Shown here: positions 1 to 60,755 of the stretch, piece after piece | How the letters are laid out: every line of letters starts with the position of its first letter | Position numbering within the stretch: position 1 is the first letter of the stretch | Source: a virus | Taxonomy: Duplodnaviria > Caudoviricetes | Length of the DNA: 64,000 bases | Direction: 5' to 3' (one strand) | Virus record (IMG/VR): IMGVR_UViG_3300031992_000072 | Location: 1 to 64,000 of that record | Notes under the pieces: model-generated | Database searches by the model: none | The model's input: the letters and a program-made list of their open reading frames with translations, nothing else | Told to the model about the DNA's origin: nothing | Made by a program: the position numbers and the translations under genes

Positions 1-302
1 CGCGTTCTGCTGGTGTCATCATATGCATGATGGATTTCTCCCGAACGAAAAAGCATGAAGGCATAATGTTTAGGTTACTTATAACGTTATTATAAAAAAT
101 TTCATAAATCTCAGATAAAATCTGTCCATGTGTTTTGTTTTTCTTTCCTTTGTTGTCCAAAGAAAAGAGGTTTGCAACATATGGTTTTCCGTTATACATT
201 TTAAGCACACACCATCCAGGTCTACGCAAACTAAGATCTGCGGCGATAACCATATATTGTTCAGGAAATTCTATTTTTTTTATTTCTTCTGTTTTCTTTT
301 TT

Positions 303-5350: not shown

Positions 5351-6577
5351 CCTTACTACCGTCGGTTTCCCGATATTTATTAGCGGAGTAGACCATGTCA
5401 TCACCCTGTTTTACAGGGGCACAGCGCTTCCAAACGCCGGATTTCACGGCGAATGTACTTCCTTTCGGAATGGTCGTTACACCTTCTCTGATTAGTCAGA
5501 GCTTGGCACGAAGTCTGCATATATTTCAGAAAGTATTTGATTAAGTTTCTCTTTGATGTCATCTTTATATGTAATTTCATATAAATGTATATAATTGTTT
5601 TTGCAATATTCTTTCTTCAAAGGATCGGTAATTTCTCTTTGGTAATCACCAAAATGATCAGGCTGCGGAATATAATGTTGTATTCCTTGATATTCTATAA
5701 GTTTCATATTTCCATTATTGTCCCACAAAGCAAAATCGAAAAATACCGGATATCCTAAAGGAGAAAGCAAATCTGGAAACGAAAATGAAGACTTAAAAGG
5801 TATGTCATACTGCTTAAGCAGTTTACCAATTTCATATTCACCTTTTGAATTTAAACATCCACAGCTTATTTGTCCTCTTCGAAGAGCACTTGCAAATACA
5901 TTAAATTCACTTCCGCATTCCAAACATATACATTTATATTTTCCATAAGATGAAGTCTTATTATATTTAACAGACATAAGTTTCTCAACAACGTAAATTG
6001 AATTAATTGTTTTTCCAGTTAAGTCATATTTCATTCGTTGTTTTTCGAAGCGTTTACATCCACAACTTAAAACTGTTCCTTTTTTCAATTCTCTTGCATC
6101 AACAGTAATTGTTTTTCCGCATATGCATTGGCACAACCATCTTGTTATTTTACGTCCTGATATACCAATACGACTTTCTGCTCTTTCCTTAACTGTAAGA
6201 TATCCAAACTTTTGACCTGTTAAATCTTCGTATTTTCTGTTCTTGTAAAATTCTTCTTTAAGATGACCACAAGACTTGGTAGTAGATAAATTTGATTCGA
6301 TTACATCAGTTTCTTTTCCGCATGAGCATATACAATGCCATTTAGAGCGGACTCTACCTGTTGGAGTTTTATATGAAAACTTATTTTGCAGCAACAATTC
6401 TCCAACAATATCACCTGGTTTGTATTTCATTAAACTTATCACCACCTTCCTATGTAAAATATTACTTTCTGAAATACTTAGCTTTTCTTCGTTAGCCGCA
6501 TTTATGCGACACCCGACATATATCGGTTCACTGTGTTTTTCGACACACATTACTGTGTGAAGGTTCTATCTTTGTTA
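5351..6577 (-). mobile_element. group I intron in dnaE (1227 nt)
   Basis: exon 1 ends in U (TTT), intron begins with an in-frame TAA and ends in G; P1 GUUU/GAAC with U.G; core-like GTAACGACCATT and GACATGGTCTACTCC; splicing restores the frame and the conserved motif. Confidence 0.85.
5492..6430 (-). CDS. intron-encoded homing endonuclease: three DLTG..FG.LTV..W.C.C.CG..SCGC repeats plus C-terminal PD-(D/E)XK/Vsr-like (EDxHD-type) domain
   Basis: repeats and FDF...IEYQGIQHY motif; lies inside the intron; start trimmed to MKYKPG. Confidence 0.8.
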   Translation of the reverse strand: MKYKPGDIVGELLLQNKFSYKTPTGRVRSKWHCICSCGKETDVIESNLSTTKSCGHLKEEFYKNRKYEDLTGQKFGYLTVKERAESRIGISGRKITRWLCQCICGKTITVDARELKKGTVLSCGCKRFEKQRMKYDLTGKTINSIYVVEKLMSVKYNKTSSYGKYKCICLECGSEFNVFASALRRGQISCGCLNSKGEYEIGKLLKQYDIPFKSSFSFPDLLSPLGYPVFFDFALWDNNGNMKLIEYQGIQHYIPQPDHFGDYQREITDPLKKEYCKNNYIHLYEITYKDDIKEKLNQILSEIYADFVPSSD

Positions 6578-16062: not shown

Positions 16063-16626
16063 TTATTTAAAACATGGTTTAACAACAGGCCATTGTTCAG
16101 TATCAACATTTTCTTTCGTTAAATTATCTTTTATACTATGTATTTTCTTTTGTTGTTGTAACAGCCGTTTATATCCACGTTTTTTTCTTGGTACGTCAAG
16201 CAATTTCATGTCAGGCACTTTTTTGACATAATATACAGATCCAGTTGGATCGCCGTACTGATTTGTTTCAAACCAGCACAGCGCACCACTGGGATAATAA
16301 TGAACACCATGCATTTTATCCTGCGTTCTATAATCAGAAAGATAGTCAAGCATATCGTTATGCCCATATATGGAAGTTACCAACACTTTTGACAGATTGA
16401 ACTTTGGAGTTCCGTCAAACTGTTTTACAACACGATAGCCAGATCTTTTATTGGATGTTGTGTTAGCATAGCATAAAACATACGAAGGCCAGAACGAACC
16501 ATTTTTTATGTCTCTGTCGAGGACAATAGCAAGCGAGTAGTACGTGCTTCTATAATCGCTTTCTGTTCTAGTCGTTTGGCTCGCTGTGTTGCCTTCTTCT
16601 GCACCAGTCTGTATGTTATTTGGCAA
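16063..16626 (-). CDS. hypothetical protein
   Basis: 187-aa ORF overlapping the RNAP 3' end; start uncertain. Confidence 0.55.
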   Translation of the reverse strand: MPNNIQTGAEEGNTASQTTRTESDYRSTYYSLAIVLDRDIKNGSFWPSYVLCYANTTSNKRSGYRVVKQFDGTPKFNLSKVLVTSIYGHNDMLDYLSDYRTQDKMHGVHYYPSGALCWFETNQYGDPTGSVYYVKKVPDMKLLDVPRKKRGYKRLLQQQKKIHSIKDNLTKENVDTEQWPVVKPCFK

Positions 16627-19328
16627 TCTTCACATCTGCACTGGTTAGATGCTTTACGCTCACACATTATTCCGCAGTCAATGCATTCATAGAAACCTTT
16701 GGTGTTCTTTACACACTGATGATTCTTTACCCAGCTTGGAATTTTTGTATTACAATCCAAGCAAGTGTCGCAATCTTTTAAGTTTGCTTTGATGTTTGAC
16801 AGAGCAATTTCTCCGAAAACACGCCAGAACATTTGCTTATGGGCAGGTTTATTCATTCCTTCGCCTGCAAACAAATGTTTTACAATATATGGATATGCAT
16901 TTTCCAACGAACCAAATTTTTCTGTTATTCTGTCTGTTATATCTTCGGCAACTATTTCATATCCATTTATCAGTTTTCTTTCATCTGTATAAGCATTGTC
17001 TCTTGCCTCAATGATGCTTGCTTTATTTGAATTGTCCATCTCACAGAATAATTCCGGAATTTCAGGACGTGAATTCACACAAGGTGCTGACAAAAGCATC
17101 TGCCAGTTAAATCGAGGCAAACCAGAATAATTTAAATTGATATTTCCAATATCATCAAATGCTTTACAGATACGATTCATTGTAGAATTATTTGGATCTG
17201 CATATTTCTTCTTGCGGTTGTGCGGAGTATCTTTACGCCCGTTCTTGCTGAATGCAAAGAACGTTGGCATACGACCATTCTTTCCGCCGCAGGCTCTGCC
17301 AATACGTTTTGCAATTTGTGGAAAGTCTTTATATTCATGGACGACACCAGTCTTTGCTCCGTCTATACGCAGATTGTTTAAATACGTAAGAAGAGCCGCT
17401 GCCACTCTATCCGGGTTGTCTTTATTCCAGACACGAGTAAGCATATTGGATATTTCGCCAATGTTTGAATAATCATGTGACCTTTTCAGTCCTCTGAAAA
17501 GAGAGTCAAAACTGATTGGTTCCGCATTAGCTACTTCAGCATCGTAAAACAACGGTACAACATCAAAAGCTTTGATATTTCTTTCTGCTATATCAACAAA
17601 CAAAGGATCAACTATAACATTTAGCTGATCCCCGTCGACATCGAACTGCAGAATTCTTGATATCATGCTTTTACAACTTGTATGGATAGCGTTTGTGTAA
17701 AACCAATCATAAACATTTTGATCGTGTGATATTTTCTGTACAGAGTGCTCAAAATAAAGATGCGGAGATCTTAGAACATCAGCTTTATCATGTCTCCTGA
17801 AGATCTTACATGCGACTTCATCTTTTGCCAGCAAACCTTTCGGTTCTTTGATGCCAAGGAACCAATATTCACAAGCCGCATAAAAGTCAGGCAATACAAA
17901 AAGTCTTTTGTTTTCACACTTTATTTTGCCGGACTTTGCATCAAGAAGCATTCTTTTACGAATATCTCTTAAAGTTTCTTTTGTATAAGCTTCACGTAAA
18001 AGCTCTGGATAATATGCCAGCGCAGCCTTGTACGGTTGTTCAGAATTCTTTTCTGCTTTCAACGTTTTAAGCATCGTATCAGGATCTTTTGTAATACCTT
18101 CAATCCTTGAGTGCTCCTCAGCTGTAAACTGTTTTATTTCATCGTCTGTCATTATTTGAAGCGTCTGTATCTGCTGATAATTTGTGTATGTGTCTTTTAT
18201 ATAGTCTTCTTCATAGTTTGTTCTGCTGAAATGACAGTTATTTTCTTTGTAAAATTTCTTATATTCATCCCAGTCTTTATAAAGCTTATATAGTTTAAAC
18301 ATAGATGTTGTTAAGATAACATTGATTCTTTCTTTTATAAGATCATGTTTTACACCCCATGCATCTTCTATAATCGGATCAACGTTATTAACCTTGCACC
18401 ATTTTATATAATCCCAGCTGCCCAGTAATCCTTTAATCCAGTCACCTCGTACCATAAAGTTGGATTTTGAAACTTCAGGAAGCATCATTCCGCATCCGTC
18501 TGTATGATCAATCTCAACAGTGCGTACTCCAACTTCATATGAATAATCAGGCTTTATATACATCATTCTGTCTGTTACAGGAGCTTTAAATTCTTTGATA
18601 ACGATACAACGATCTATATCAAAGTCTGTCCACTCTTCTGTGGCTGACGCAGCCAGTGCAAGATATGCCATATATTTTGAAACGTTCAGACTTCCTCTTG
18701 AATTAATTAAGTCCCAGTCCATTCCGCATTCAAGACGTGCATGAACTTTATCCCACATTTCATCCGAGATGAATACAACCTTATCTCTTCTGAGTTGTCC
18801 TGCGCTGGCTGAGAAAAACCTGTAATGTTTATTCACAACCTTATCGCCATTCAACACAGAAAGATAAAATCCGTTTAAAACAAACTGTCTTAATATTTCA
18901 AGATTTTTCCATTTAATCACAATCAAGTCAAGCGTCTTATCAAGATGCTTCAACCCCATTGATCGTGATAATTCACAACAAAATTCTGCAATCTTCTTTC
19001 CTGTTTTCAGATTATCATATGTAACGCCTTCAGGAAACGGATAATCTGCATCTTTAGGATAATAGATTACGGATTTCAGTCTGACAAATCGTGGTTCATT
19101 TTCATGTTCGTGAATTAACTTTTCAAGGGTTTGCTTTATTTCATTTTTTCTTTGAATGACATTTTCCCGTTCTTCTCCTCCTTTAATGTTTTGAGCGTCC
19201 ATTTCGTCTAGCTTGTTCTTTTCTGCGATTATCTGCATATATAAGTCATATTCTTCGTCAGTGAACAAGTCATAGCTGGATAGGGATACCAACCTTATCT
19301 GCTCTTGCAGATATGTTTTTACAGACAA
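16506..19328 (-). CDS. YonO-like single-subunit two-barrel (RdRP-like) DNA-dependent RNA polymerase
   Basis: HTDGCGM, RGDWIKGLL, LRSPHL, QFDVDGD catalytic motif; TTG start after AAAGGAGG; similar to SPbeta YonO from memory. Confidence 0.85.
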   Translation of the reverse strand: MSVKTYLQEQIRLVSLSSYDLFTDEEYDLYMQIIAEKNKLDEMDAQNIKGGEERENVIQRKNEIKQTLEKLIHEHENEPRFVRLKSVIYYPKDADYPFPEGVTYDNLKTGKKIAEFCCELSRSMGLKHLDKTLDLIVIKWKNLEILRQFVLNGFYLSVLNGDKVVNKHYRFFSASAGQLRRDKVVFISDEMWDKVHARLECGMDWDLINSRGSLNVSKYMAYLALAASATEEWTDFDIDRCIVIKEFKAPVTDRMMYIKPDYSYEVGVRTVEIDHTDGCGMMLPEVSKSNFMVRGDWIKGLLGSWDYIKWCKVNNVDPIIEDAWGVKHDLIKERINVILTTSMFKLYKLYKDWDEYKKFYKENNCHFSRTNYEEDYIKDTYTNYQQIQTLQIMTDDEIKQFTAEEHSRIEGITKDPDTMLKTLKAEKNSEQPYKAALAYYPELLREAYTKETLRDIRKRMLLDAKSGKIKCENKRLFVLPDFYAACEYWFLGIKEPKGLLAKDEVACKIFRRHDKADVLRSPHLYFEHSVQKISHDQNVYDWFYTNAIHTSCKSMISRILQFDVDGDQLNVIVDPLFVDIAERNIKAFDVVPLFYDAEVANAEPISFDSLFRGLKRSHDYSNIGEISNMLTRVWNKDNPDRVAAALLTYLNNLRIDGAKTGVVHEYKDFPQIAKRIGRACGGKNGRMPTFFAFSKNGRKDTPHNRKKKYADPNNSTMNRICKAFDDIGNINLNYSGLPRFNWQMLLSAPCVNSRPEIPELFCEMDNSNKASIIEARDNAYTDERKLINGYEIVAEDITDRITEKFGSLENAYPYIVKHLFAGEGMNKPAHKQMFWRVFGEIALSNIKANLKDCDTCLDCNTKIPSWVKNHQCVKNTKGFYECIDCGIMCERKASNQCRCEDCQITYRLVQKKATQRAKRLEQKAIIEARTTRLLLSSTET

Positions 19329-19665
19329 ACAGACCAGTCCTCCTTTTATGAATTTATATGATAAATCCCTTACGGGAATTGAATTTAAAAGCCGTGCGTT
19401 ATGGGCGTTTCGCACGGCACGTAGCCATTCTCCCATGCCCTATGGCTTGCACCCATCAGGTTCGCCTGTCCCTGAACTATGACGAGAAACGAGAATACAC
19501 CAAACGGGTTCGAACTTGAGAGGGTGTGCTGACAAAATCCTATTGCTCGCTCGTTTCTTTTTGTTGGAAAGGAGGTGTCACTCACAACACGTTTAACGTC
19601 ACCACACTATAAATGACGGGAGCTTTTCCAGTCAGAGCAATAAGTATTTGCCTCTCAGAAATTAG

Positions 19666-19736
19666 TAGGGCGTCTGAGAATTGAACTCAAATTGATGGTT
19701 TATAAGACCATTCTTCTACCGTTGAAGTAACGCCCA
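19666..19736 (-). tRNA. tRNA-Ile (anticodon TAT), no encoded CCA
   Basis: cloverleaf TGGGCGT-TA-CTTC/GAAG-ATGGT CTTATAA ACCAT-TTGAG TTCAATT CTCAG-ACGCCCT-A; 1:72 T.T mismatch. Confidence 0.8.
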
Positions 19737-20097: not shown

Positions 20098-20131
20098 AAA
20101 AAAGGAGCGAGTAAAAATACCCGCTCCTTTG
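20097..20131 (-). terminator. intrinsic terminator after RT
   Basis: AAAGGAGCGGGTATTTTTACTCGCTCCTTTTTTT on minus strand. Confidence 0.75.
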
Positions 20132-20294: not shown

Positions 20295-21446
20295 TTATGC
20301 TATAGTTCCATTCAGGTATTTCTTAAACATGCTGCCAACATTTACAGACCATTTTTTATTGTATTGATCAATTATCTTTTTGAAATACTCAGGTTCTATC
20401 ATGCTGTAATAAGATAGTTGTCCTCTGAGATGCGTTACATCTCCTATATCCCAAAAGTTCTTGTTCTTTGTATCAAGGATGAAAGAACAAAGAGCTGCTT
20501 TGAAATAGTTCTTTTTCTTTACCGAAACTGTAATGTCATTATCCTTATTCAGCAACAATCCAAGACACCAGTTTGCTGATTTCCCAGCCTTTTTTCCGAA
20601 GTGCGTCTTTTCGTTTTTGATTTTAAAAGGCGCTCCAAACTCTTTTAATGTATCTTCAATTAGTTTAACAATTTCTTCATAAGGAAAGCATTTTTCTGCG
20701 GATATATGAATATCATCTGCATATCTGGTGTATATAATTTTCCTATCGGCAAGCATATTAAACAGCTTATGATCGATAGGAATCATCATAATATTTGTGA
20801 GCGTTGGCGAAAGCACTGTACCCTGTGGCAGTCCGCCGTTCAGGAAACCAAGCGATAAAGCTTTTTCTAGTTCGTTTCGTCCTTCTTCAGATTTGCAGAT
20901 TTCTGAAAGAGGAAAGATAATCGAACACATTTTCATAACAAATTCCAGCGTTGTACTCGGAAAGAATCCGCTAAAATCTGTTTTCAAAAACCAGTTACTA
21001 TTATTCCTTTGGTGTTTTTTAACACAATCTACGATACATCTGTCTTCAATATATGCAAAAGCAGATGTATGATACAGAACACCACAGTCATTTTTCAGAA
21101 AACTACTCAGTACTCTTAGTGCGTTCTGTAGTTCGTCGCATGGTGCGTCTATTTGTCTGAAGCCGCCAGTAGTCTTTGGAATTTTAAAGCTGTTATATAA
21201 ACTTTTTCTGTCTTTTTCAAACAAATTACTGTTTAATAAATTAAACTTTCTCAACCAGTTAATCATTCCATTAACATCTATTTTATTTAGAAATGCTTCC
21301 GGAATTTCTTCAAACTTCTTTGTAATAGTAGCACTTGAATAGCTTTTTTCATTTGTAAGTTCGTTTAGAACTATTTTTTCGTTAAATACATCTTCCCAAG
21401 TTAACTGATGAGGTTTGCGATTTTGTTTTACTGTTAAATATATCAT
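20295..21446 (-). CDS. retron-type reverse transcriptase
   Basis: Y.SFKIPKTTGGFRQIDAP, AFAY...IVDCVKKH, KTDFSGFFPS, GLPQGTVLSPTLTN, YTRYADD, CLGL in place of VTGL, C-terminal LRGQLSY. Confidence 0.85.
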   Translation of the reverse strand: MIYLTVKQNRKPHQLTWEDVFNEKIVLNELTNEKSYSSATITKKFEEIPEAFLNKIDVNGMINWLRKFNLLNSNLFEKDRKSLYNSFKIPKTTGGFRQIDAPCDELQNALRVLSSFLKNDCGVLYHTSAFAYIEDRCIVDCVKKHQRNNSNWFLKTDFSGFFPSTTLEFVMKMCSIIFPLSEICKSEEGRNELEKALSLGFLNGGLPQGTVLSPTLTNIMMIPIDHKLFNMLADRKIIYTRYADDIHISAEKCFPYEEIVKLIEDTLKEFGAPFKIKNEKTHFGKKAGKSANWCLGLLLNKDNDITVSVKKKNYFKAALCSFILDTKNKNFWDIGDVTHLRGQLSYYSMIEPEYFKKIIDQYNKKWSVNVGSMFKKYLNGTIA

Positions 21447-21449
21447 TTC

Positions 21450-21730
21450 TTTTGCCTCGCACTTAAACTAAATTACTAGAACCAGTCATCTCGCTGCCTC
21501 CTCGAGTCGCCGCGCTTGATTCTTTTCCGTCGCTTCTTCCCGATTTCGGGGTCTTTGTTTAGGTTTCTGACTTGTGATTTGTCCATGTTTTCATTTTCTA
21601 GCCCTTTCGACATCCTACTGGGCACCGTATCCGGACCACCTCGTGCTTCCAGGAAGGCGTTTTTACCGGGCAAAGTGATACAATTCATTACATGAATTGT
21701 TCAACGAGTGAACGTTGATTTTCTTTAAGT
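21450..21730 (-). ncRNA. candidate RT-associated ncRNA (msr/msd-like leader)
   Basis: 280-nt gap between E1 gene and RT with hairpins TCAACG..CGTTGA and ACAATTCA..TGAATTGT and a long purine-rich stretch; the 70-aa ORF here may be spurious. Confidence 0.4.
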
Positions 21731-21731
21731 G

Positions 21732-22403
21732 TTACAAGACAAGTGTTTCGAAATTAAACGGATTCAGTATCATTGCTCTTTCAAGTTTCTCTTCTTTAAC
21801 AAAATTAACAAAATTTATCACACCAGCCATTGCGACGCTCCACACAGTCGGCATTACGCAAAGTGATACTTTACATGCGCTGACAGGAACATTCTTTTCA
21901 GCTTCTGCGTGAGTAAAATCCATTGTTTCAAGTAACGCTTGAATATCAGAAGTTTTAGTCCAGTCAGCAGCATAATGCTGCGCGGAAACCAAAGCAGTCC
22001 TGAAATCGAACATCGCCTTAATATTCAGGTTATACTTATTCTCTTCGACAATGCGCTTCCTAAGCTCAATATTGTCAACACAAAGAAAAACATAACCATT
22101 CAGCTTATTTCCATCCCAGCCGTCTCCGTATAATTTAATTGTCTTCGCTGCTTCCGGATTAATCTCAACCCAACGGTCATATACACCTTCAAGTTTTGGT
22201 TTATAAAGATTTTTCGTAGTAAACATCTGATTAGCCAGATTATGTTCTTCAACAACGTCAAAGTCATACAAACTGACATTTTTCAAGCCAAATCTGGCAA
22301 GCAGCTCAGCCACCGTAGAACCGACTGAGCCGCAGCCAATGATATGAATTCTGTCTGTACACTTTTCAGGGTTAAAGAACTCAGCACTTTTTGCTAAATT
22401 CAC
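21732..22403 (-). CDS. ThiF/E1-like ubiquitin-activating enzyme
   Basis: IHIIGCGSVGS, YDFDVVEEHNLANQ, FLCVDN, DFR; retains PVSAC but lacks the CxxC Zn pairs. Confidence 0.9.
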   Translation of the reverse strand: MNLAKSAEFFNPEKCTDRIHIIGCGSVGSTVAELLARFGLKNVSLYDFDVVEEHNLANQMFTTKNLYKPKLEGVYDRWVEINPEAAKTIKLYGDGWDGNKLNGYVFLCVDNIELRKRIVEENKYNLNIKAMFDFRTALVSAQHYAADWTKTSDIQALLETMDFTHAEAEKNVPVSACKVSLCVMPTVWSVAMAGVINFVNFVKEEKLERAMILNPFNFETLVL

Positions 22404-23173
22404 CAGTCATACCCTCCGTAATACGTTCCGTCCCAATAGTCATTGAGATAGACTGTTTCGTTTTTTTCGTTTTTTTTACTCTTTTTCTGAACCGGATAAT
22501 AATTCTGATAAGGATAAGTTTTCTTTTCCAGCACCAGTTCTTTTGTAGAAGCGATAAAACCAGAAACTGTGTCGTCTTCGTCTTCAATATCAATCACTAC
22601 ATCGTTTTTATCATAGAACATATTATTATCCAGATCATAAAGATAAGTATTAATATCTCCGCTCTTATTCCAAATCTGGAAAATATAGAAACCAGACTTA
22701 CCCATACTTCTGACAACATCTGCCTGGTTTTGAAGGTCTACTCCTGATGCTGCTGTAGACATCTTTACATGAGAATGCGCCTGAAAATGCATATGTTCAG
22801 CTTCATCATCTGTAAGAGAATTGAAGAACTCAAGAGTATCATTATCTTCAGTGTCAACCTTACTGCCATTTACATACTGCTTACAGATTTTTACATCATA
22901 TACATAATAGAGCGTATCAGACAGTTTCTTGACAAGCCCATACCAGGCGACCTCAGTGTCATAATAATTGACCAAGGCTTCCATACGAACATATGCCTTC
23001 TGAGAATAAACGATAGTAATCTTTTCTTTTGCTTTCATTGAAAAGTCTGTAGAAAATGTGAACTTTGTATCATTCATATTTTCCTTAAACTTTTCCCATT
23101 CTTTTCTAAAGTTTGCAAAGAATGATTCAAGCATTTTATTTTCAACTTCTTCTGTTATTTTAATCGGCTTCAT
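22400..23173 (-). CDS. JAB/MPN-like metallopeptidase (deubiquitinase-like)
   Basis: EVAWYG..., Q.V....VD, HSHVKMSTAASGVD (HxH-x9/10-D motif). Confidence 0.8.
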   Translation of the reverse strand: MKPIKITEEVENKMLESFFANFRKEWEKFKENMNDTKFTFSTDFSMKAKEKITIVYSQKAYVRMEALVNYYDTEVAWYGLVKKLSDTLYYVYDVKICKQYVNGSKVDTEDNDTLEFFNSLTDDEAEHMHFQAHSHVKMSTAASGVDLQNQADVVRSMGKSGFYIFQIWNKSGDINTYLYDLDNNMFYDKNDVVIDIEDEDDTVSGFIASTKELVLEKKTYPYQNYYPVQKKSKKNEKNETVYLNDYWDGTYYGGYDW

Positions 23174-24630
23174 TCTTCTTTCTCCTTGTCAACCAAATAA
23201 ATCAACGCTTCTTCAGGAGTCATATCTACCCCATCTTTACGGCGAAGAACTTTCTCACGGCTGGTCAGAAGCCAACCAAGAAACGGTCTGAAGTTCTGTT
23301 CAGTTTCTTCAAGATTAACAGAACCTGCGGAAGCACAGCAATATTCAACCGCAACAATATAATTACGATTCAACATTGCATCAATAATCCTGTCGCCAAA
23401 CTGACCGAAACAGGAATAATTCTTAAAATGAGGATTCGGAATATATTCTTTCAATTCCGGATCAGCAACTACATAATCATACGTTCTTGTTGACGTACAA
23501 TTGCAACTATCAAAGTCAAGCGTATAATTACTGCAAATTTTAATCGCAAATTCAGGGCTTTCACAGAAAATGCTGTTCAACAAAATCTTCCTGTTTTCAC
23601 GGTCTTTGAATGCATCGAGCAGGTTATTCTGCATATACTTGCCGTCAAAGATATGTCCTGCTTTTGCAAAGCTTTCCCATGCATCCTCATTATAATTATT
23701 CAGCAAAGTACCAACCGCAAATGTAAGCTTGCTTCCCTGGATCTTCAGATTAAACAGTTGCTTATTTGTGCTGAGATATTCAACAAATTCATCTTCAAGA
23801 TCATTCACATTTTCAGTTGCTTTCAGTCCTTCATAAAGAACAATAAGTTCCTTCAGATGCTTAATTGCGTTTGTATATTCAGTCTTTGTCGATTCTACAT
23901 ACCGCCTCTGATCTGATACATCCCTGAAAGCATGATTGACTTTACCTTCATGCATTGCCTTCAGAAGTGTACCAAGCATCATGCGTCTGAAGTCCATTGT
24001 ATAAGGAGCTACCGCATTCTTGATGCTCTGAACAAACGCAAGCTTATCATTCTTTGCGAGCGTTGTAATGATCGAATAATCTTTCTGTTCAAGAGGCTTA
24101 TACTTAAACAGATTCGGCATCATAAGACTAAGGAACGAAATAAGAAGATGATAATATTTTATATCCTTGGATCTGATAAAGATTGCCGCAATATTCTTTT
24201 CTTTATGCCGAGCAGCAATACAATCCACATCAGCTTTTTCTTTCAGAAAAGCACCAATCTTTTCAATAATAACATAATCATGAAGCGCCAAATCAGACTT
24301 AACATTATCATAATTATGCGTATATGTATAATAGCAAAACATCGGAACGTCTGTAAGAGATTCTTCTCTATCAAACAGATTCAATACTGCTGAACTTTCT
24401 TCTGGATACGAACAATAAACACCACTAATACCTTTATAAGGATTGATTCTTTCTTTCAGAAGAGCAATCCCAAGACATGTCAACGAGTAATCAGGCTCGT
24501 TTTCCAGCCTGGAAATAGTGTCAATATACTCCTGTGGAATAGGATCGATAGGATTCTGAATATATTCTCTGAACATTTCTTTTGTTTCTCCGTTTCTTTT
24601 ATTAAAATTAGGGGAGCTGATATATTTCAA
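23170..24630 (-). CDS. large protein with coiled coil and putative C-terminal prokaryotic E2-like domain
   Basis: C-terminal PNPHFKNYSCFG resembles the PH/N...C-x-G signature of prokaryotic E2 families; operon context between Ubl and JAB. Confidence 0.5.
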   Translation of the reverse strand: MKYISSPNFNKRNGETKEMFREYIQNPIDPIPQEYIDTISRLENEPDYSLTCLGIALLKERINPYKGISGVYCSYPEESSAVLNLFDREESLTDVPMFCYYTYTHNYDNVKSDLALHDYVIIEKIGAFLKEKADVDCIAARHKEKNIAAIFIRSKDIKYYHLLISFLSLMMPNLFKYKPLEQKDYSIITTLAKNDKLAFVQSIKNAVAPYTMDFRRMMLGTLLKAMHEGKVNHAFRDVSDQRRYVESTKTEYTNAIKHLKELIVLYEGLKATENVNDLEDEFVEYLSTNKQLFNLKIQGSKLTFAVGTLLNNYNEDAWESFAKAGHIFDGKYMQNNLLDAFKDRENRKILLNSIFCESPEFAIKICSNYTLDFDSCNCTSTRTYDYVVADPELKEYIPNPHFKNYSCFGQFGDRIIDAMLNRNYIVAVEYCCASAGSVNLEETEQNFRPFLGWLLTSREKVLRRKDGVDMTPEEALIYLVDKEKEE

Positions 24631-24654
24631 TCAGCTCCCCGTATATTACGGAGA

Positions 24655-25263
24655 TTATTTAGCAATAATCAGCTTATCAATCTCCGCTTCCTTTTCCGTG
24701 ATTTCCTTCAGCAGATCAGGAATTTCCTTTTCAATTTGATTCAGGTCAAGCAGTGCAGAACCCATAATGTCCTTCACCGCAGCCAGCTTATCATCGACAT
24801 CCTCGTCGAGCAGGACGGTCACAGTGGCCTTGCCGCCGTCATTGGTATAGGTGCCGAAGCAGACACCATATTCATTGATAGAGCCACTGCCACTGCAGGT
24901 CTTCACCTTAAACAGAGCGTCACCGTCTTCATCAACGATCTTCAGCGCTTCGGGAGCATACTTTTCTACACGCTCCCAGTCTTCCCGAGCCACATCAGAT
25001 ACAACAACAGCAGAAGCACCGGAAATTTCAACATGAGCAGCATTGTCGATCTTCACGATGGAAGACAGACGGCACTCCTTGTCGACGCCCCACTCACGCA
25101 GAGTCTTGTCCATTCCGGCAGGGTCAATACGAGTACCATCGATACAGTTGGTGGCTACAGAATAGTCCACGTCGAAAGCATCGAAGATCTCACGGATAGT
25201 GGTTCCTTCATCAAACAGGTCACTCTTGCGTCCAGCGGCAGTGGTAACATAAACTTTAATCAT
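24655..25263 (-). CDS. ubiquitin-like (beta-grasp) protein fused to a C-terminal domain
   Basis: N-terminal ~75 aa MIKVYV...TTIREIFDAFDVDY...IDG...MDKTLREWGV...LSSIVKIDNA fits a Ub-like pattern; strong RBS, GC-rich codons. Confidence 0.65.
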   Translation of the reverse strand: MIKVYVTTAAGRKSDLFDEGTTIREIFDAFDVDYSVATNCIDGTRIDPAGMDKTLREWGVDKECRLSSIVKIDNAAHVEISGASAVVVSDVAREDWERVEKYAPEALKIVDEDGDALFKVKTCSGSGSINEYGVCFGTYTNDGGKATVTVLLDEDVDDKLAAVKDIMGSALLDLNQIEKEIPDLLKEITEKEAEIDKLIIAK

Positions 25264-25395
25264 CTTTTAATCTCTCCTTTTCTTTTATTAATCTTTTTAA
25301 TAGATGATTATTATATATAGCAAGTTTCCTTGCAATATACCAAAAGTAAGAAAAACAAATTGTAAGGGAATGAGGTCAAGCATGGAGCCCATCCC

Positions 25396-25926: not shown

Positions 25927-26004
25927 TGGCTGGCGTGGCTGGATTCGAACCAGCGGAGTCTCCGGGTCAAAGCCGGATTCGTTAAACCGCTTCGACACAC
26001 GCCA
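25927..26004 (-). tRNA. tRNA-Gln (TTG) with encoded CCA
   Basis: TGGCGTG acceptor, TCCGG CTTTGAC CCGGA, GCTGG TTCGAAT CCAGC, CACGCCA G CCA. Confidence 0.9.
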
Positions 26005-26353: not shown

Positions 26354-26611
26354 TCATTTAGATTCCTTCCTTTTTCCATCAGCACAGAACCAATCCTTAT
26401 CCGGCTTGAATTTTATGTTGTGTTCATTTCTCATGTTCCTACAATATCCATCATCCATGAAACCATAGTGGTCAATTAAAAATCTGCAATCTTTGCAACG
26501 GACAAGTTCTCCGTGATTGTCATTCCATTGATAATCAGAACCGAGCTCACCGCCTGTCCAATATGATTCTATAAATTCAATTTTTCTTTTTTGCGGTCTG
26601 CTTTCGCTCAT
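26354..26611 (-). CDS. VRCKDC...WFCADG family Zn-finger protein
   Basis: motif shared with 27309 and 28245 ORFs. Confidence 0.65.
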   Translation of the reverse strand: MSESRPQKRKIEFIESYWTGGELGSDYQWNDNHGELVRCKDCRFLIDHYGFMDDGYCRNMRNEHNIKFKPDKDWFCADGKRKESK

Positions 26612-27123: not shown

Positions 27124-27322
27124 TCTGCAATACGCTCCTTTCGTCCTTGTGGTAAATGTAGTCATGCACCATATTCTCAATAAACGTTTGTACAGAACCA
27201 AATCCGTGTAGTTGTTCAAGGTATTCATATTCCTTCGGAGACAATCTGATGTTTACGATTTCATGATACGGACTATATGTATAGTGCAGTCCGTTTTCTT
27301 CTTTGACTTCATTGAGTATCAT
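27110..27322 (-). CDS. hypothetical protein
   Basis: MILNEVK start overlapping upstream stop. Confidence 0.5.
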   Translation of the reverse strand: MILNEVKEENGLHYTYSPYHEIVNIRLSPKEYEYLEQLHGFGSVQTFIENMVHDYIYHKDERSVLQNDDY

Positions 27323-27611
27323 CGTCTTTCCTTTCCCCGTCAGCGCAGAACCAATTATCTTCTGGATACCATGAATACCATTCGTCACCACAGCAACGGC
27401 ACGGGCATTTGCTTCCTTCTGGAAACTCAAGATCAAAACCGCTTTCATACGTTTCCCAATCTGGTTTCTTTGGTCTGTGCTTGCAATCCTTGCAACGGAC
27501 AACTGCTTCCTGCTCTTTCAGTAGGGAAATAGTGTCTGATATTAACTTCATCGTTTCTTTTGAACCATGAAGTTTTCTAAGTTCTTTGATAACCTTCTCC
27601 CTGTCAGGCAT
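27309..27611 (-). CDS. VRCKDC...WFCADG family Zn-finger protein
   Basis: MPDREKVI...VVRCKDCKH...NWFCADGERK. Confidence 0.7.
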   Translation of the reverse strand: MPDREKVIKELRKLHGSKETMKLISDTISLLKEQEAVVRCKDCKHRPKKPDWETYESGFDLEFPEGSKCPCRCCGDEWYSWYPEDNWFCADGERKDDDTQ

Positions 27612-28244: not shown

Positions 28245-28547
28245 TCACCCTTCTTTCCGTTTTCCATAAGCGCAGAACCAATCCGGTTCGTGGGAATTTC
28301 CGTCTATTCCGCAAACAACGTCTCCTGTTCGTTCCCAACATTTCTTATTACTGCAATCCTTGCACTGGACAATTTGTGGATGTTCTTTTAGAATCTCAAG
28401 GATTTTGCAAATATGTTTTGCGTTAATACCTATTACCTTCGTCACACTTGCTAATGCTTTTATGTCTTGTGTATTTTGATATGTTCCAAACGCAGAATAT
28501 ACAGACAAAACGGTGACTAATACAATCAAAATAACTACTGCTATCAT
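28245..28547 (-). CDS. membrane-anchored VQCKDC...WFCAYG family protein
   Basis: N-terminal hydrophobic helix plus shared C-terminal Cys motif. Confidence 0.6.
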   Translation of the reverse strand: MIAVVILIVLVTVLSVYSAFGTYQNTQDIKALASVTKVIGINAKHICKILEILKEHPQIVQCKDCSNKKCWERTGDVVCGIDGNSHEPDWFCAYGKRKEG

Positions 28548-45585: not shown

Positions 45586-48500
45586 TTAGTCGATCTTAAG
45601 ATCGTCTTCCGTGGCAGAGAGAGCAGCTTCTGCTTCGTCTGCACAGCTGATTTCAACGGCAAGACCGCCGAAGATCAACCGATACGCAGACCAGAGCTTA
45701 TTCCTGATGAAGTCGGTCTTCCCGTCCATCTTCAGGTACTTCTCATCGCAGTACGCGAACATCTGCCAGGTGATCACGTCGTATGCGTCTTCCAGCGTCT
45801 TTCCGTGAGCGACCGCGAAGGCTTCGATCTCTGCAAGAGCGTTTGCTCTCCATGCCATTTCGAAGGTAACTTCGTCGTCGTCTTCGCTGACATTGTTCTT
45901 GTCCTTATTGCTATCATCGTCCAGCCAGACAGCACGGTCACGGTCCAGCCTTCTGGCAAGGCTGTTAAACAGACCCTGATTCGGACGGAACCTTTCACCA
46001 TTGATGGTTACGAGTTCTCCGTTTCCTTCCCGGATCAGTCCGGTCAGACCACGATATCCGCATTCCTGATTGAACATGATCTTCTTGTAGTCGAACTGTC
46101 CTTCAGGCGCATCGTCGATCTTTACGTCTCTCCGAGCATTCTCTGCATACAGAGCGAAGAGCTTGTTCAGCGTCTTATACCTGTGGAGCTCGTTGAGCTT
46201 GGACGGATCAGCCAGTTCATCCAGATGGTTCTTGGGAGTCTGAAGCAGACTGTCGTTCAGATAGAGGCTATTGCTCTTATCAAGCGAGAACCTGTCGATC
46301 ATTACAGGTTTTCCGTCCGGTCCAAGCTGAACGATTCCGTCATCGTCCGTAAGGACAACGTACCTGGTTTCCTTGTAGTACGTGTTTGCTTCCCGAGCAG
46401 TTGCGAAGAACTTTTTCTTACCGTTGTGCTTTACATACCAGATGTTGCCTTCATCAACGGCATCTTTGTATACCTTCGCCCACGGCTGAAGCATACGAGC
46501 ACAGATAGAGCTTTCTTCAGGCTCTTCAATTTCCGCTCCGCCATGCTTGCTTGCGTCTACCAGAACGTTCGCAGCGAACTTCTTGAAGTCTACGCCGCGA
46601 TGAGTGACGGGCATCCTCTTGGTATACCAGCGTTTGTCCACTTCGTCCTGTTCTGTGAGCAGACCGTTCAGCAGAGCATTGAGCCCATAGACGGTAAGCC
46701 CAAGCTCATTCATATGGGTCAGACCCGCGAAGTACTCTCGAAGAACCTCTTCGGTAATCACAGTCTTCTCCGGGTTGGGCGTTTCCCAGATAATCAGTCT
46801 GTTCCATACCTTGAGTGTTTCTTTGACAGCCTCGATGATCGCAGGATCATCGCTGGTGTTGGCGTGGTCTCCATCAAAGTCCATGTCCATGGCGACTGCT
46901 ACGTCGTCATGGCAGTTCAGGAAGATTGTATATTCTTCGTTCTTAATGAACTTTCTGTAATTGCTCGGAATGGATACATTCTCCAGAACACGGACACTGT
47001 TCGGATGAACCACAGGGCTACGCCACATGGCGAGCTCTCCGTGCTTCACGGTCGGCAGATGGATCTGACCAGCCTTCAGCATTCCGTTGTCGTTCTTCCC
47101 ATGCCACGCGGCAAGGATGAAGAACGGATCGGGACAGACAAAGCTGTAGAAGCAGTCCTTCAGAATCTTTCCCGAAAACGCTTCGTTGATGTTCTGCTCC
47201 ATCTTATGTTCAATATGTTCTCTGAAAGAGGGAACGTTCACGAGCTCAGGATACTGTACGGCAACGCTGCCCCATTCTCTTCCGAGCATCTTTGTAGCGC
47301 TTTCAACTGTGTGATTGTCGTTCAGACGCTTGATGGTCTTTGCAGCCATCTTTGCAACCTGTTCATCGGTTGCTTCGCACAGGCACTGCGTTACCTGATA
47401 CGAGATGTTCTTCTTTTCCTTGGGATGAGTCTTGACTACGGTGCCAAGGGTGATCTTTTCACCCATAGCCGTACACCAGTCTTCAAAGGTCTTGTAGGCC
47501 TTGTTCTTGCCAATGCTGGTCTTGATGACAGACTCGTCCACGAAGAAGACGATATCATCGATATCCCGTCCGTCAGGTGTCTTGGTTACGCCAATGGACT
47601 TCAGGTAGGCCTGAGCATTCACATTCTTGCAACCCAGACCTTTCAGCTTCACGGGGTTGCCCCTGTAGCTGTAGAACGACGTGTCGTTCTGGAAGTCGTT
47701 CAGAATCTTGTCTGCCTTTTCAGCAGACATTCCGTTGTAAACCATCTGGTTGTGTAGTTCCATCTGAACCTTCTTCGTCATGCTGATGACGAAGAATCCG
47801 TCAGAGAACTTCACAGGAACAAGATCGTTATCCCTGTCTTCGGCATGACCGTCAAGATACAACTTCGTTGTGTTTGCCACAACGTTCTTGACTACAGTCG
47901 GATAGATGCAGAACATCTCCGGCTTGAACGGAATTTCGATCTGGTGGCTGTACACTGCGATCAGACCTACGGTATAAGCGATGTTCTTGGCAGCAGTGTT
48001 CTGCCATTCATCATCGACTCCGCCATTAGTGTATTCCCGCATCTTGTCATAGATACTTTCTTTTACTGCAATGGTCTTGCACCATTTCGCAGCGTTCGTG
48101 CCGTGTCCGAAGATACGGTACTTGACGTTGTTCACGAGAAGACCGTTCTCGATCACGTCCAGCCATGCATCGAGCAGCCTCTCGGCACGGATGATACCTT
48201 CGAGGTCTTCCTCGTTCTTCGGCTCTGCGATGCGGCTAACTACGTGGATGACAGCATCTTTACCGCCAATTTCCATTGCCTTATCTTCTACAAGACTGAC
48301 GGACTTGCGGATCGTGTCATAGACCCACAGGTTTTCAGACGTAGGATCGTTGTTCAGCTGAGCACGAATGAACTCCATGCTTTTGTACGTCTTTACGGTT
48401 TCAGGCTTACAGATCTTCCGCAGGGCGCGGACAACCTTGATGGCGGTTTTCTCACCGATGCCCTTGATTGCCGTAAGCTTCTCGATATTGTTGGTGGCTA

Positions 48501-48837
48501 CTGCGTTCCGCAGCTCACCACAGTCAATCTTGATGACAGCCTCGATCATCGGCTTATTGATCTTTTCCTTGATCATCAGCCCAATGGCGTTGATCTGCCA
48601 CTGCTTTTCGTCCAACAGTGTGTAGCAGTCATAGTCCCAGTTGTGAGCGTCAAGGACGACTCTGGTTCCATCGATAACGGACTCCAGAAGGCACTGATAA
48701 TCGCCCTTCTTGGCGTCTTCAAAGTAGCCGTAAGCCACCTTGAGATCGTCGCGTTCTACAAAGTGTACTTTTCCTGCGTTCGGGCCTTTCTTGATGATGC
48801 AAGAAACCCTGAACAGAATGTTAATAAGTTTCGCCAT
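45586..48837 (-). CDS. second two-barrel RNA polymerase-like protein with N-terminal HhH
   Basis: FSDG, KLKGLG, WRSPVVHP, MDFDGD catalytic motif; IKGIGEKTA HhH near the N-terminus. Confidence 0.75.
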   Translation of the reverse strand: MAKLINILFRVSCIIKKGPNAGKVHFVERDDLKVAYGYFEDAKKGDYQCLLESVIDGTRVVLDAHNWDYDCYTLLDEKQWQINAIGLMIKEKINKPMIEAVIKIDCGELRNAVATNNIEKLTAIKGIGEKTAIKVVRALRKICKPETVKTYKSMEFIRAQLNNDPTSENLWVYDTIRKSVSLVEDKAMEIGGKDAVIHVVSRIAEPKNEEDLEGIIRAERLLDAWLDVIENGLLVNNVKYRIFGHGTNAAKWCKTIAVKESIYDKMREYTNGGVDDEWQNTAAKNIAYTVGLIAVYSHQIEIPFKPEMFCIYPTVVKNVVANTTKLYLDGHAEDRDNDLVPVKFSDGFFVISMTKKVQMELHNQMVYNGMSAEKADKILNDFQNDTSFYSYRGNPVKLKGLGCKNVNAQAYLKSIGVTKTPDGRDIDDIVFFVDESVIKTSIGKNKAYKTFEDWCTAMGEKITLGTVVKTHPKEKKNISYQVTQCLCEATDEQVAKMAAKTIKRLNDNHTVESATKMLGREWGSVAVQYPELVNVPSFREHIEHKMEQNINEAFSGKILKDCFYSFVCPDPFFILAAWHGKNDNGMLKAGQIHLPTVKHGELAMWRSPVVHPNSVRVLENVSIPSNYRKFIKNEEYTIFLNCHDDVAVAMDMDFDGDHANTSDDPAIIEAVKETLKVWNRLIIWETPNPEKTVITEEVLREYFAGLTHMNELGLTVYGLNALLNGLLTEQDEVDKRWYTKRMPVTHRGVDFKKFAANVLVDASKHGGAEIEEPEESSICARMLQPWAKVYKDAVDEGNIWYVKHNGKKKFFATAREANTYYKETRYVVLTDDDGIVQLGPDGKPVMIDRFSLDKSNSLYLNDSLLQTPKNHLDELADPSKLNELHRYKTLNKLFALYAENARRDVKIDDAPEGQFDYKKIMFNQECGYRGLTGLIREGNGELVTINGERFRPNQGLFNSLARRLDRDRAVWLDDDSNKDKNNVSEDDDEVTFEMAWRANALAEIEAFAVAHGKTLEDAYDVITWQMFAYCDEKYLKMDGKTDFIRNKLWSAYRLIFGGLAVEISCADEAEAALSATEDDLKID

Positions 48838-59735: not shown

Positions 59736-59750
59736 TGGGAGGTGCCGAAA

Positions 59751-60755
59751 ATGAGTGAAATTAACGTTTCCCGCGATAGCAAGCTCATCAAGGTGCTTGC
59801 CGCACAGGTCAACAATCAACGTGTTGACTCTGACAAGTCCGAAGAAGCTGCTCAGATTATCTCTGAACTGGCTCAGGATATGAATCCCCAGAACATGCAT
59901 CAGATTGCTCAGATTGTTGGCTATACTGTTGATGAACTGCAGCAGAAATCTCTTGATTTCCTGAATCTGGTTGCTGATATCAAGAACATTGGCTATGGCG
60001 ACAAGGCTGCGTTTAAAGTACGCACTGGCGGCATTAAGGCTGTGTTCCAGGCTAAAGGTGCTACTGCGCCTCGTAGCTACGTGGCTGACAGCCAGATCCT
60101 GGTTGAAACCCGGGAAATCGCGGCTCGTCCTGCCATTAACATTGTTGATCTGCGTACCAATCGTGTGCAGATGTCCGAACTGATCCGTCTTGCGAATGAA
60201 GCGATTACTCTGAAGAAGATTGCTCTGGTTGAAACTGTACTGCACGATTCTATCGATAACTACAGCTCTCCGTTCTATGCGGCTTCCGGCACGACTCCTC
60301 TGGTTATTGCTACTCTGGATGCTCAGCTGAATTACTTCCGTAGGCTTGGTCCTGTGACGCTGCTTGGCGACATCGCCGCTGTAAGTCAGCTGGCTGGTCA
60401 TACTGGTATGGCTGTCAGTGCTACTGGCAAGCAGTTCTCCGGAGATCTGATCAATGAAAACAATAATAATGGTTTCATCGGTCGTTATCGTGGCTGCGAC
60501 GTCATTGCTATGACAAACGCTTATGCCGAAGGTCAGACTGCTCATCCGATCCTGGCTGAAGACTGGATTTACATCATTCCCGGCGGTCAGAGCCCTGATA
60601 TGCGGAACCTCAAGATTGTTAACGAAGGCCCCGTTAACTCCATGGCTTCTCAGAACATTGACGACAGGACTTATGAAATCCTGCTCGATCAGTGGTTCGG
60701 TGTTGCTTTTGTGGTTGGAAAAAATCCGACCAGCGGTGCTCATTATATTGGATAA
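59751..60755 (+). CDS. major capsid protein
   Basis: 334 aa, position after scaffold/decoration genes, strong codon bias, terminator after. Confidence 0.8.
   Translation: MSEINVSRDSKLIKVLAAQVNNQRVDSDKSEEAAQIISELAQDMNPQNMHQIAQIVGYTVDELQQKSLDFLNLVADIKNIGYGDKAAFKVRTGGIKAVFQAKGATAPRSYVADSQILVETREIAARPAINIVDLRTNRVQMSELIRLANEAITLKKIALVETVLHDSIDNYSSPFYAASGTTPLVIATLDAQLNYFRRLGPVTLLGDIAAVSQLAGHTGMAVSATGKQFSGDLINENNNNGFIGRYRGCDVIAMTNAYAEGQTAHPILAEDWIYIIPGGQSPDMRNLKIVNEGPVNSMASQNIDDRTYEILLDQWFGVAFVVGKNPTSGAHYIG

Follow-up and report, generated by a model that had tools for sequence, protein, structure and literature searches.

The gene cluster analysed here lies on the minus strand, at 25263..21732, of a 64,000-nucleotide stretch of DNA (the window, that is, positions 1 to 64,000 of the 80.4-kb virus contig IMGVR_UViG_3300031992_000072, an uncultured gut phage in IMG/VR), and its four genes, all in the same orientation, encode a ubiquitin-like (Ubl) fusion protein, an E2-like protein, a JAB protease and an E1 enzyme. 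Using a number of comparative and structural approaches, we found that this module is a real variant, widespread and carried by phages, of the ubiquitin-like conjugation systems of prokaryotes, and we consider it likely that the operon constitutes a conjugation module of six proteins carried by the phage. The parts of this reading differ in strength: the tag with its alanine terminus, the protease and the E1 are solid, and the thioester relay that would link them is inferred. The Ubl fold, the JAMM motif, the E1 family, the synteny across 80 loci and a hairpin within the operon were computed, and the alanine terminus was obtained by comparative genomics.

The first-pass annotation had proposed four overlapping or closely spaced genes on a phage genome, and both points hold in the sequence: the motifs that it quoted are all present (...SSIVKIDNA-AHV, PNPHFKNYSCFG, HSHVKMSTAASGVD and GCGSVG), and the window carries the phage genes for a DNA polymerase, a primase-helicase, a large terminase, a portal protein and two YonO-like RNA polymerases (PHROGs). 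The first gene of the operon (25263..24655) encodes a protein of 202 amino acids, in which a ubiquitin/SUMO-like beta-grasp Ubl domain (residues 1-75; 25263..25039), ending in ...V-K-I-D-N-A75, is followed by what we call domain 2 (residues 76-202 and the stop codon; 25038..24655), an alpha/beta domain with a C-terminal helical hairpin. The E2-like gene comes next, and then the genes for a JAB/JAMM metallopeptidase of 257 amino acids (23173..22400), with E74 and H133-S-H135-x7-S143-x2-D146, and for a minimal E1, or ThiF-family adenylating enzyme, of 223 amino acids (22403..21732), with GCGSVGS, YDFD, LCVDN and a conserved Cys177 in [ST]-A-C. The E2-like gene was first listed as 24630..23170, with a TTG start and 486 amino acids. 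This start falls within a terminator-like hairpin, and both the database gene call and all homologues begin at the ATG at 24576 (MF...), which is preceded by a GGAG ribosome-binding site; the protein is therefore one of 468 amino acids (24576..23170) and not of 486. The E2-like, JAB and E1 genes overlap by 4 nucleotides (ATGA, GTGA) and are therefore translationally coupled.

A survey of related phages, which the first-pass annotation had suggested, shows that the operon is conserved. We compared 80 loci (labelled L0xx), namely 13 from IMG/VR, one from a GenBank phage (MT835544.1) and 66 contigs out of metagenome-assembled genomes from gut and rumen, the last of which look like phage contigs that were binned into genomes. 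The gene set recurs across these loci at identities down to 20-25%, and because of this recurrence it is not a chance association. Among loci with enough flanking sequence, 60 of 61 have the E2-like gene and all 61 have the JAB gene, and a retron-type reverse transcriptase (RT) gene stands 3' of the E1 gene in 60 of 63, so that the order of the module is domain 2, Ubl, E2-like, JAB, E1 and then RT. The best conserved of the four window proteins is the Ubl-domain 2 protein (60-88% identity), and the E2-like family comprises 1,832 cluster representatives at 50% identity. When a further conserved flanking gene was sought in 73 loci, none was found, the best cluster being present in 18 of the 73; the module is thus a self-contained unit, mobile between phage genomes. 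Against GenBank phages, megablast of the region gave no match and tblastn gave MT835544.1 as its sole match, and genome scans with the E2-like pattern returned no relatives. One locus is rearranged, with the RT gene between those for JAB and E1 (L066:2723-8654).

The identity of the tag is carried by its fold and by its C-terminus. An AlphaFold2 model of the 202-residue protein, made from a 27-sequence alignment, has a mean predicted local distance difference test (pLDDT) score of 86 and consists of two domains with a low-confidence stretch at residues 71-73 between them. Foldseek supports the beta-grasp fold (probability 1.00, target template modelling (TM) scores 0.65-0.73), in agreement with the model and with the nature of the N-terminus as first proposed. 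In the structural alignment, the Ubl tail coincides with the terminal Gly-Gly of SMT3 and ubiquitin (model 1..76 against Smt3 23..98), and this tail, V70-K-I-D73-N74-A75, contains the invariant core of the family. The Ubl was detected by tblastn in 54 loci. The fused form of the window occurs in 15 of them, invariably with DNA followed by A at the junction, and the other 39 (including L013 and L015) have a stand-alone Ubl gene of 75-88 codons behind a separate domain 2 gene. Nineteen of these stand-alone genes stop exactly after ...VVKADNA, and the remainder mostly continue for 1-4 residues past DNA (A, V, C, TSK, LAA, NVK, YAA, GNDV), with a single gene that continues for 12. Inspection of the open reading frames (ORFs) of 12 more, divergent loci revealed a stand-alone Ubl gene in 11 (10 new, of 75-99 codons, that of L019 being already among the tblastn detections), ending mostly in DGA (followed by R, RK, SK or NN) and once each in KNA, NCA, EGN and YGG. 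Altogether, almost all of the roughly 65 Ubl genes have Ala at the terminus, in the form of DNA or DGA, and one has YGG. Because the stand-alone genes stop at or just past ...DNA, the mature tag ends at Ala75, and the extra residues, or the 126-residue domain 2, must be cut off prior to activation; this conclusion is strongly backed by the gene ends, and it upholds the cleavage after KIDNA that had been suggested for the window. The divergent stand-alone Ubl of L019 (L019:5554-5787) ends in ...IVKAYGG, that is, in Gly-Gly, unlike the Ala of the family.

The protease and the E1 were both correctly assigned at the outset. The JAB protein has E74, H133-S-H135, S143 and D146 in common with all of 34 homologues, and the HSHx7SxxD motif is present in 73 of 73 loci. 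Among its neighbours in the Atlas are clusters that carry Prok-JAB (feature score 0.94; structural TM scores of 0.56/0.67 over residues 69-224), with a structural neighbour in which 13-33% of the members carry PF14464, and in hhalign comparisons with four bacterial Prok-JAB proteins only the 17-residue motif aligns. The E1 matches the Pfam ThiF model (2.4e-18; 66.6 bits as compared with a cut-off of 28.1). The best PDB match of its family profile is UBA5 (4e-13), followed by ThiF-type proteins, Uba1, MoeB, MccB and Cap2. Across 76 loci, its conserved features are GCGxxGS, YDFD, the Asp of LCVDN and Cys177 in [ST]-A-C, and its C-terminal 100 residues are specific to the family.

The 468-residue protein is probably the E2 of the module. 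Its model (pLDDT 92) has an alpha/beta domain at the N-terminus, then a helix of 65 residues and, at the C-terminus, a UBC/RWD-like domain, in which a helix, two strands, a helical insert and two strands lead to the N381-P-H383-x5-C389-x-G391 loop and three final helices, an order that agrees with the E2 reading. Forty members, at 21-31% identity, all have N381, H383, C389 and E424, and the motif P-[N/H]-P-H-x5-C-x-G was found in 64 of 71 loci. Asn381 lies eight residues before Cys389, a spacing that we take to be the same as in the HPN...C of UBE2D. Structure matches of RWD/UBC type span the domain that bears the invariant Cys, the best of them being non-catalytic RWD domains. Foldseek of the whole model against the PDB gave nothing, and against BFVD it gave one uncharacterised Siphoviridae protein (4.8e-20) with no named fold; an Atlas search with the C-terminal part was uninformative, the Atlas's own model having a pLDDT of 0.35. 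PDB sequence and profile searches (queries A1-A4) returned nothing meaningful, and Pfam, NCBIfam, PADLOC and PHROGs held no match for the Ubl fusion, the E2-like protein or the JAB.

Based on these results, we propose that the tag would be produced in excess as a Ubl-domain 2 precursor, and that the JAB would cut it after Ala75 (between ...V-K-I-D-N-A and the A that follows), which would free domain 2 and expose an alanine carboxyl terminus. The small E1, of homodimer type, would then adenylate this terminus and probably form a thioester on Cys177, from which the tag would be handed to Cys389 of the E2-like protein. Because no E3 is present, the choice of target would fall to the N-terminal part of the E2-like protein, where the N-terminal domain and the long helix probably select it. 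The E2-like protein would finally ligate the tag to lysines of the target, and the JAB may reverse this step.

Several observations weigh against such a cascade. The E2-like protein has no sequence tie to any E2 family in Pfam (searched with 40 divergent members) or in PDB profiles, there is no E2 enzyme among the structure matches listed for it, and hhalign of its C-terminal domain with two Cap2 E2 domains showed no similarity; a collection of bacterial E2 sequences from 399 genomes gave 2 hits. The first-pass annotation had named the lack of a UBC-like fold as a refutation, and here the RWD/UBC-type matches over the Cys-bearing domain speak in favour of its reading. The JAB gene has no match to any hidden Markov model (HMM) searched, the Pfam Prok-JAB and JAB models included, and domain 2 matches nothing in Pfam or PHROGs. 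The E1 is a single ThiF domain with neither zinc CxxC pairs nor an inserted Cys domain, and an Asn (NLxNQ, in 75 of 76 loci) replaces the Arg of the N-x-x-R-Q ATP-binding motif, in alignment with the Arg of UBA5. Furthermore, one locus (L077:3707-6484) has no genes for the E2-like protein and the JAB; it retains domain 2, the Ubl, the RT and an E1 that is truncated at its N-terminus.

Some of these points would also suit a different mechanism, unlikely in our view, in which ligation is independent of an E2: the acyl-adenylate or the E1 thioester would react with the acceptor directly, by chemistry of the Urm1/Uba4 or MccB type, and the 468-residue protein would be a scaffold, a target adaptor or the target itself. 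The lack of a sequence tie to E2 families and the non-catalytic RWD domains as the best fold matches speak for this mechanism, as do the gene content of L077 and the further matches of the E1 profile, at about 1e-11, to MccB and MoeB/ThiF. However, the truncation of its E1 makes L077 look degenerate, and an invariant Cys with N/H-P-H and G around it, in a family of such low identity, is hard to explain for a pure scaffold. In addition, the gene occupies the position that the E2 gene has in the bacterial Bil operons, and it is coupled in translation to JAB and E1. We retain the conjugation cascade with the 468-residue protein as its probable E2.

Domain 2 raises a second alternative. It was found by tblastn in 57 of the 61 loci with enough flank, and ORF inspection revealed a domain-2-like gene in 2 of the 4 exceptions. 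S89, K101, P104, F136 and E178 are nearly or fully invariant in 59 sequences, K101 being kept in 57 of them. The extension of about 125 residues that had been described at the outset is indeed present in the window, as a fused part of 126 residues; what had been missed is that it is an independent conserved partner, encoded in most relatives by a separate gene upstream of the Ubl gene. As judged from these sequences, domain 2 stands as a sixth conserved partner and is more than an extension. One could then suppose that the Ubl serves above all as an N-terminal chaperone or expression tag that is cleaved from an abundant domain 2, as in the ubiquitin-ribosomal protein fusions, and that the E1 and the E2-like protein modify domain 2, for example at Lys101. 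The fused architecture, a codon bias like that of the possible capsid gene, the high conservation of the whole 202-residue protein, and the constant adjacency, good conservation and kept lysine of domain 2 speak for this alternative. We nevertheless find this improbable: Ubl and domain 2 are separate genes in 39 of 54 loci, so that the fusion is not needed, and the invariant tail, the exact stops at DNA and the presence of an E1 and a JAB argue for C-terminal activation of the Ubl itself. Moreover, this alternative still requires conjugation, and it differs from the cascade proposed above only in the choice of target. A sulfur-carrier or cofactor-type pathway (ThiS/MoaD-ThiF), or a pathway of peptide modification like those of RiPPs (peptides made by the ribosome and modified after translation), would agree with an E1 of the small ThiF/MoeB type that matches those enzymes, but it is very improbable and the sulfur-carrier pathway was rejected: the Ubl has no Gly-Gly terminus, sulfur transfer has no use for a JAB or for a UBC/RWD-like protein with a Cys, the ORFs nearby showed neither a rhodanese nor a cysteine desulfurase, and the MoaE and ThiG HMMs, which matched control genomes, had no match in the 80-kb record, as the earlier remark that no sulfur-transfer genes are nearby had it.

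The conjugation module also appears to be built for unequal expression of its parts. The Ubl gene has a GC content of 0.49 and, at third codon positions (GC3), of 0.51, as compared with a GC3 of 0.31-0.37 in the four downstream genes, which bears out the GC-rich codon usage ascribed to it initially; a 337-codon ORF at 59742-60755, possibly a capsid gene by position only, has a similar value (0.49). Among 52 loci, 46 have a higher GC3 in Ubl/domain 2 than in E2-like/E1. The terminator-like hairpin (24640..24611, minus strand; 11 bp, 7 of them GC, with a T-rich tail) lies between the Ubl-domain 2 and E2-like genes, and in L001-L013 its position is kept with a different sequence. Because of this conserved hairpin and the higher GC3, the tag would be made in excess, with the hairpin as an attenuator that holds it above the enzymes. 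The hairpin is enclosed by an outer helix (24570-24660), in which ATCTCC just past the Ubl-domain 2 stop pairs with GGAGAT, where the E2-like gene has its ribosome-binding site; this pairing is present in the window and in L001-L009 and could be a device for translational coupling or masking. Upstream of the Ubl gene, a weak sigma-70-like match (TTGCAA-17-AATAAT, 9 of 12 positions; 25335..25307, minus strand) is a candidate promoter, in a region where promoter-like sites (25 found) are barely above the 16.6 expected in shuffled sequence.

Among known systems, the closest in layout are the BilABCD operons, the type I/II bacterial ISG15-like ubiquitination operons (bioRxiv 10.1101/2023.09.26.559546, 10.1101/2023.09.04.556158), whose published gene order is Ubl-E2-DUB(JAB)-E1, where DUB stands for deubiquitinase (bioRxiv 10.1101/2023.09.26.559546). 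The phage module shares the Ubl-E2-JAB-E1 order and a beta-grasp Ubl, and in type II Bil the JAB pre-processes a Ubl that carries extra C-terminal residues (10.1101/2023.09.26.559546), as we propose for the phage. There are differences between the two. The module described here is encoded by a phage, whereas Bil belongs to bacterial defence islands; its Ubl ends in Ala (DNA/DGA), whereas that of Bil ends in a reactive Gly exposed by the DUB; and its E1 is a single domain of 223 residues, whereas the Bil E1 has inactive and active adenylation domains, an inserted Cys domain and a 4-Cys zinc site. The E2-like protein has N/H-P-H-x5-C...E in place of the C...E.H....H (CEHH) arrangement of BilB (10.1101/2023.09.26.559546), as compared by motif order. 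Finally, the phage module has further members in domain 2 and in a retron RT and its RNA. Apart from the retron RT, the module proteins matched no PADLOC or NCBIfam system model beyond the Rossmann fold of the E1.

Other systems resemble the module in single parts. The type II cyclic oligonucleotide-based antiphage signalling system (CBASS) has a JAB partner and a comparable E1 adenylation domain (Cap2 PADLOC models, 3e-14; PDB 7tsx, 6e-10). The conjugated C-termini of its cGAS/DncV-like nucleotidyltransferase (CD-NTase) can end in Ala or Gly. In the phage, a true beta-grasp Ubl is present, the E2-like protein and E1 are unfused, whereas Cap2 is an E2-E1 fusion, and no CD-NTase was seen at the locus, though no CD-NTase HMM search was made; we rejected type II CBASS on account of the separate E2-like and E1 genes and of the lack of similarity to Cap2 E2 domains. 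UBA5-UFM1 provides the best PDB match of the E1 profile and a short single-domain E1 that is expected to act as a homodimer, and UFM1 too is made as a precursor and then trimmed. However, this match is limited to E1 residues 18-122, the C-terminal half of the phage enzyme being family-specific, and the phage module has no UFC1- or UFL1-like partners. The PRTRC cassette (TIGR03735-03742) likewise comprises several genes on mobile DNA, one of them for a protein of the ThiF family; it was rejected, as PRTRC_ThiF scored 19.3 bits against a cut-off of 144.75 and no other PRTRC model matched any protein.

The downstream unit (21731..20295, minus strand), a conserved part of the module, consists of a 285-nucleotide non-coding spacer and the RT gene (21446..20295; 383 amino acids), with a terminator at 20130..20101 (minus strand). 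The window RT matches the NCBIfam retron St85 family at 3.7e-53, below the family cut-off, and PADLOC RT_II-A at 2e-49. This retron-type RT 3' of the E1, a tie that the first-pass annotation had missed, is what the module has in common with retrons, which combine an RT, an msr-msd RNA and an effector. Downstream of the RT, 7 of 73 loci have an RNase HI-like gene (for example L024:10912-11349). We suggest that the RT and its RNA would work with the Ubl module, most likely in phage-phage or phage-host conflict. A possible hypothesis, which we hold tentatively, is that Ubl cascade and retron belong to a single functional system that phages use in such conflicts, in one of two ways: (i) the RT and its DNA/RNA product could sense or guide, with the Ala-ended Ubl cascade as the effector, or (ii) the Ubl could be attached to the RT, to its DNA product or to domain 2. 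In our literature search, we found no pairing of a retron with Ubl, E1 or JAB genes, and no description of a complete phage-encoded Ubl pathway or of a retron joined to one.

The surroundings of the module have several features of their own. The YonO/RdRP-like single-subunit RNA polymerase genes (minus strand, 16506-19436 and 45586-48837) both belong to phrog_8308, and the second has a GC3 of 0.63, far higher than the remaining phage. Just upstream of the operon, on the minus strand, are three paralogous proteins of 85-100 amino acids (26354-26611, 27309-27611 and 28245-28547) with CKDC...DWFCA(D/Y)G(K/E)RK, likely a zinc-ribbon family. Three phage tRNA genes are on the minus strand (Ile-TAT 19665-19736, Gln-TTG 25927-26004 and Leu-TAA 30116-30198), the first two of which flank the Ubl-retron block on either side, and an HNH/homing-endonuclease-like gene (5492-6550, minus strand) adjoins the DNA polymerase gene.

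In conclusion, complete prokaryotic E1-E2-JAB-Ubl pathways have, to our knowledge, been described up to now as anti-phage or stress systems of bacteria (Bil, Bub, type II CBASS), whereas in the present case, that of a widespread family, the machinery belongs to the virus. This family is distinctive in its alanine-ended tag, its minimal UBA5-like E1 without the canonical Arg, its unclassified Cys-bearing transfer protein, its obligate partner domain and its retron. If the two parts do act jointly, the Ubl-retron system would be a new retron type as well as the first complete virus-encoded Ubl conjugation pathway in prokaryotic viruses. The module would represent a compact, orthogonal tagging system for biotechnology, and it would begin a new chapter in the conflict between viruses and their hosts if the tag goes onto the defence proteins of the host, the virions of rivals or the product of the retron.

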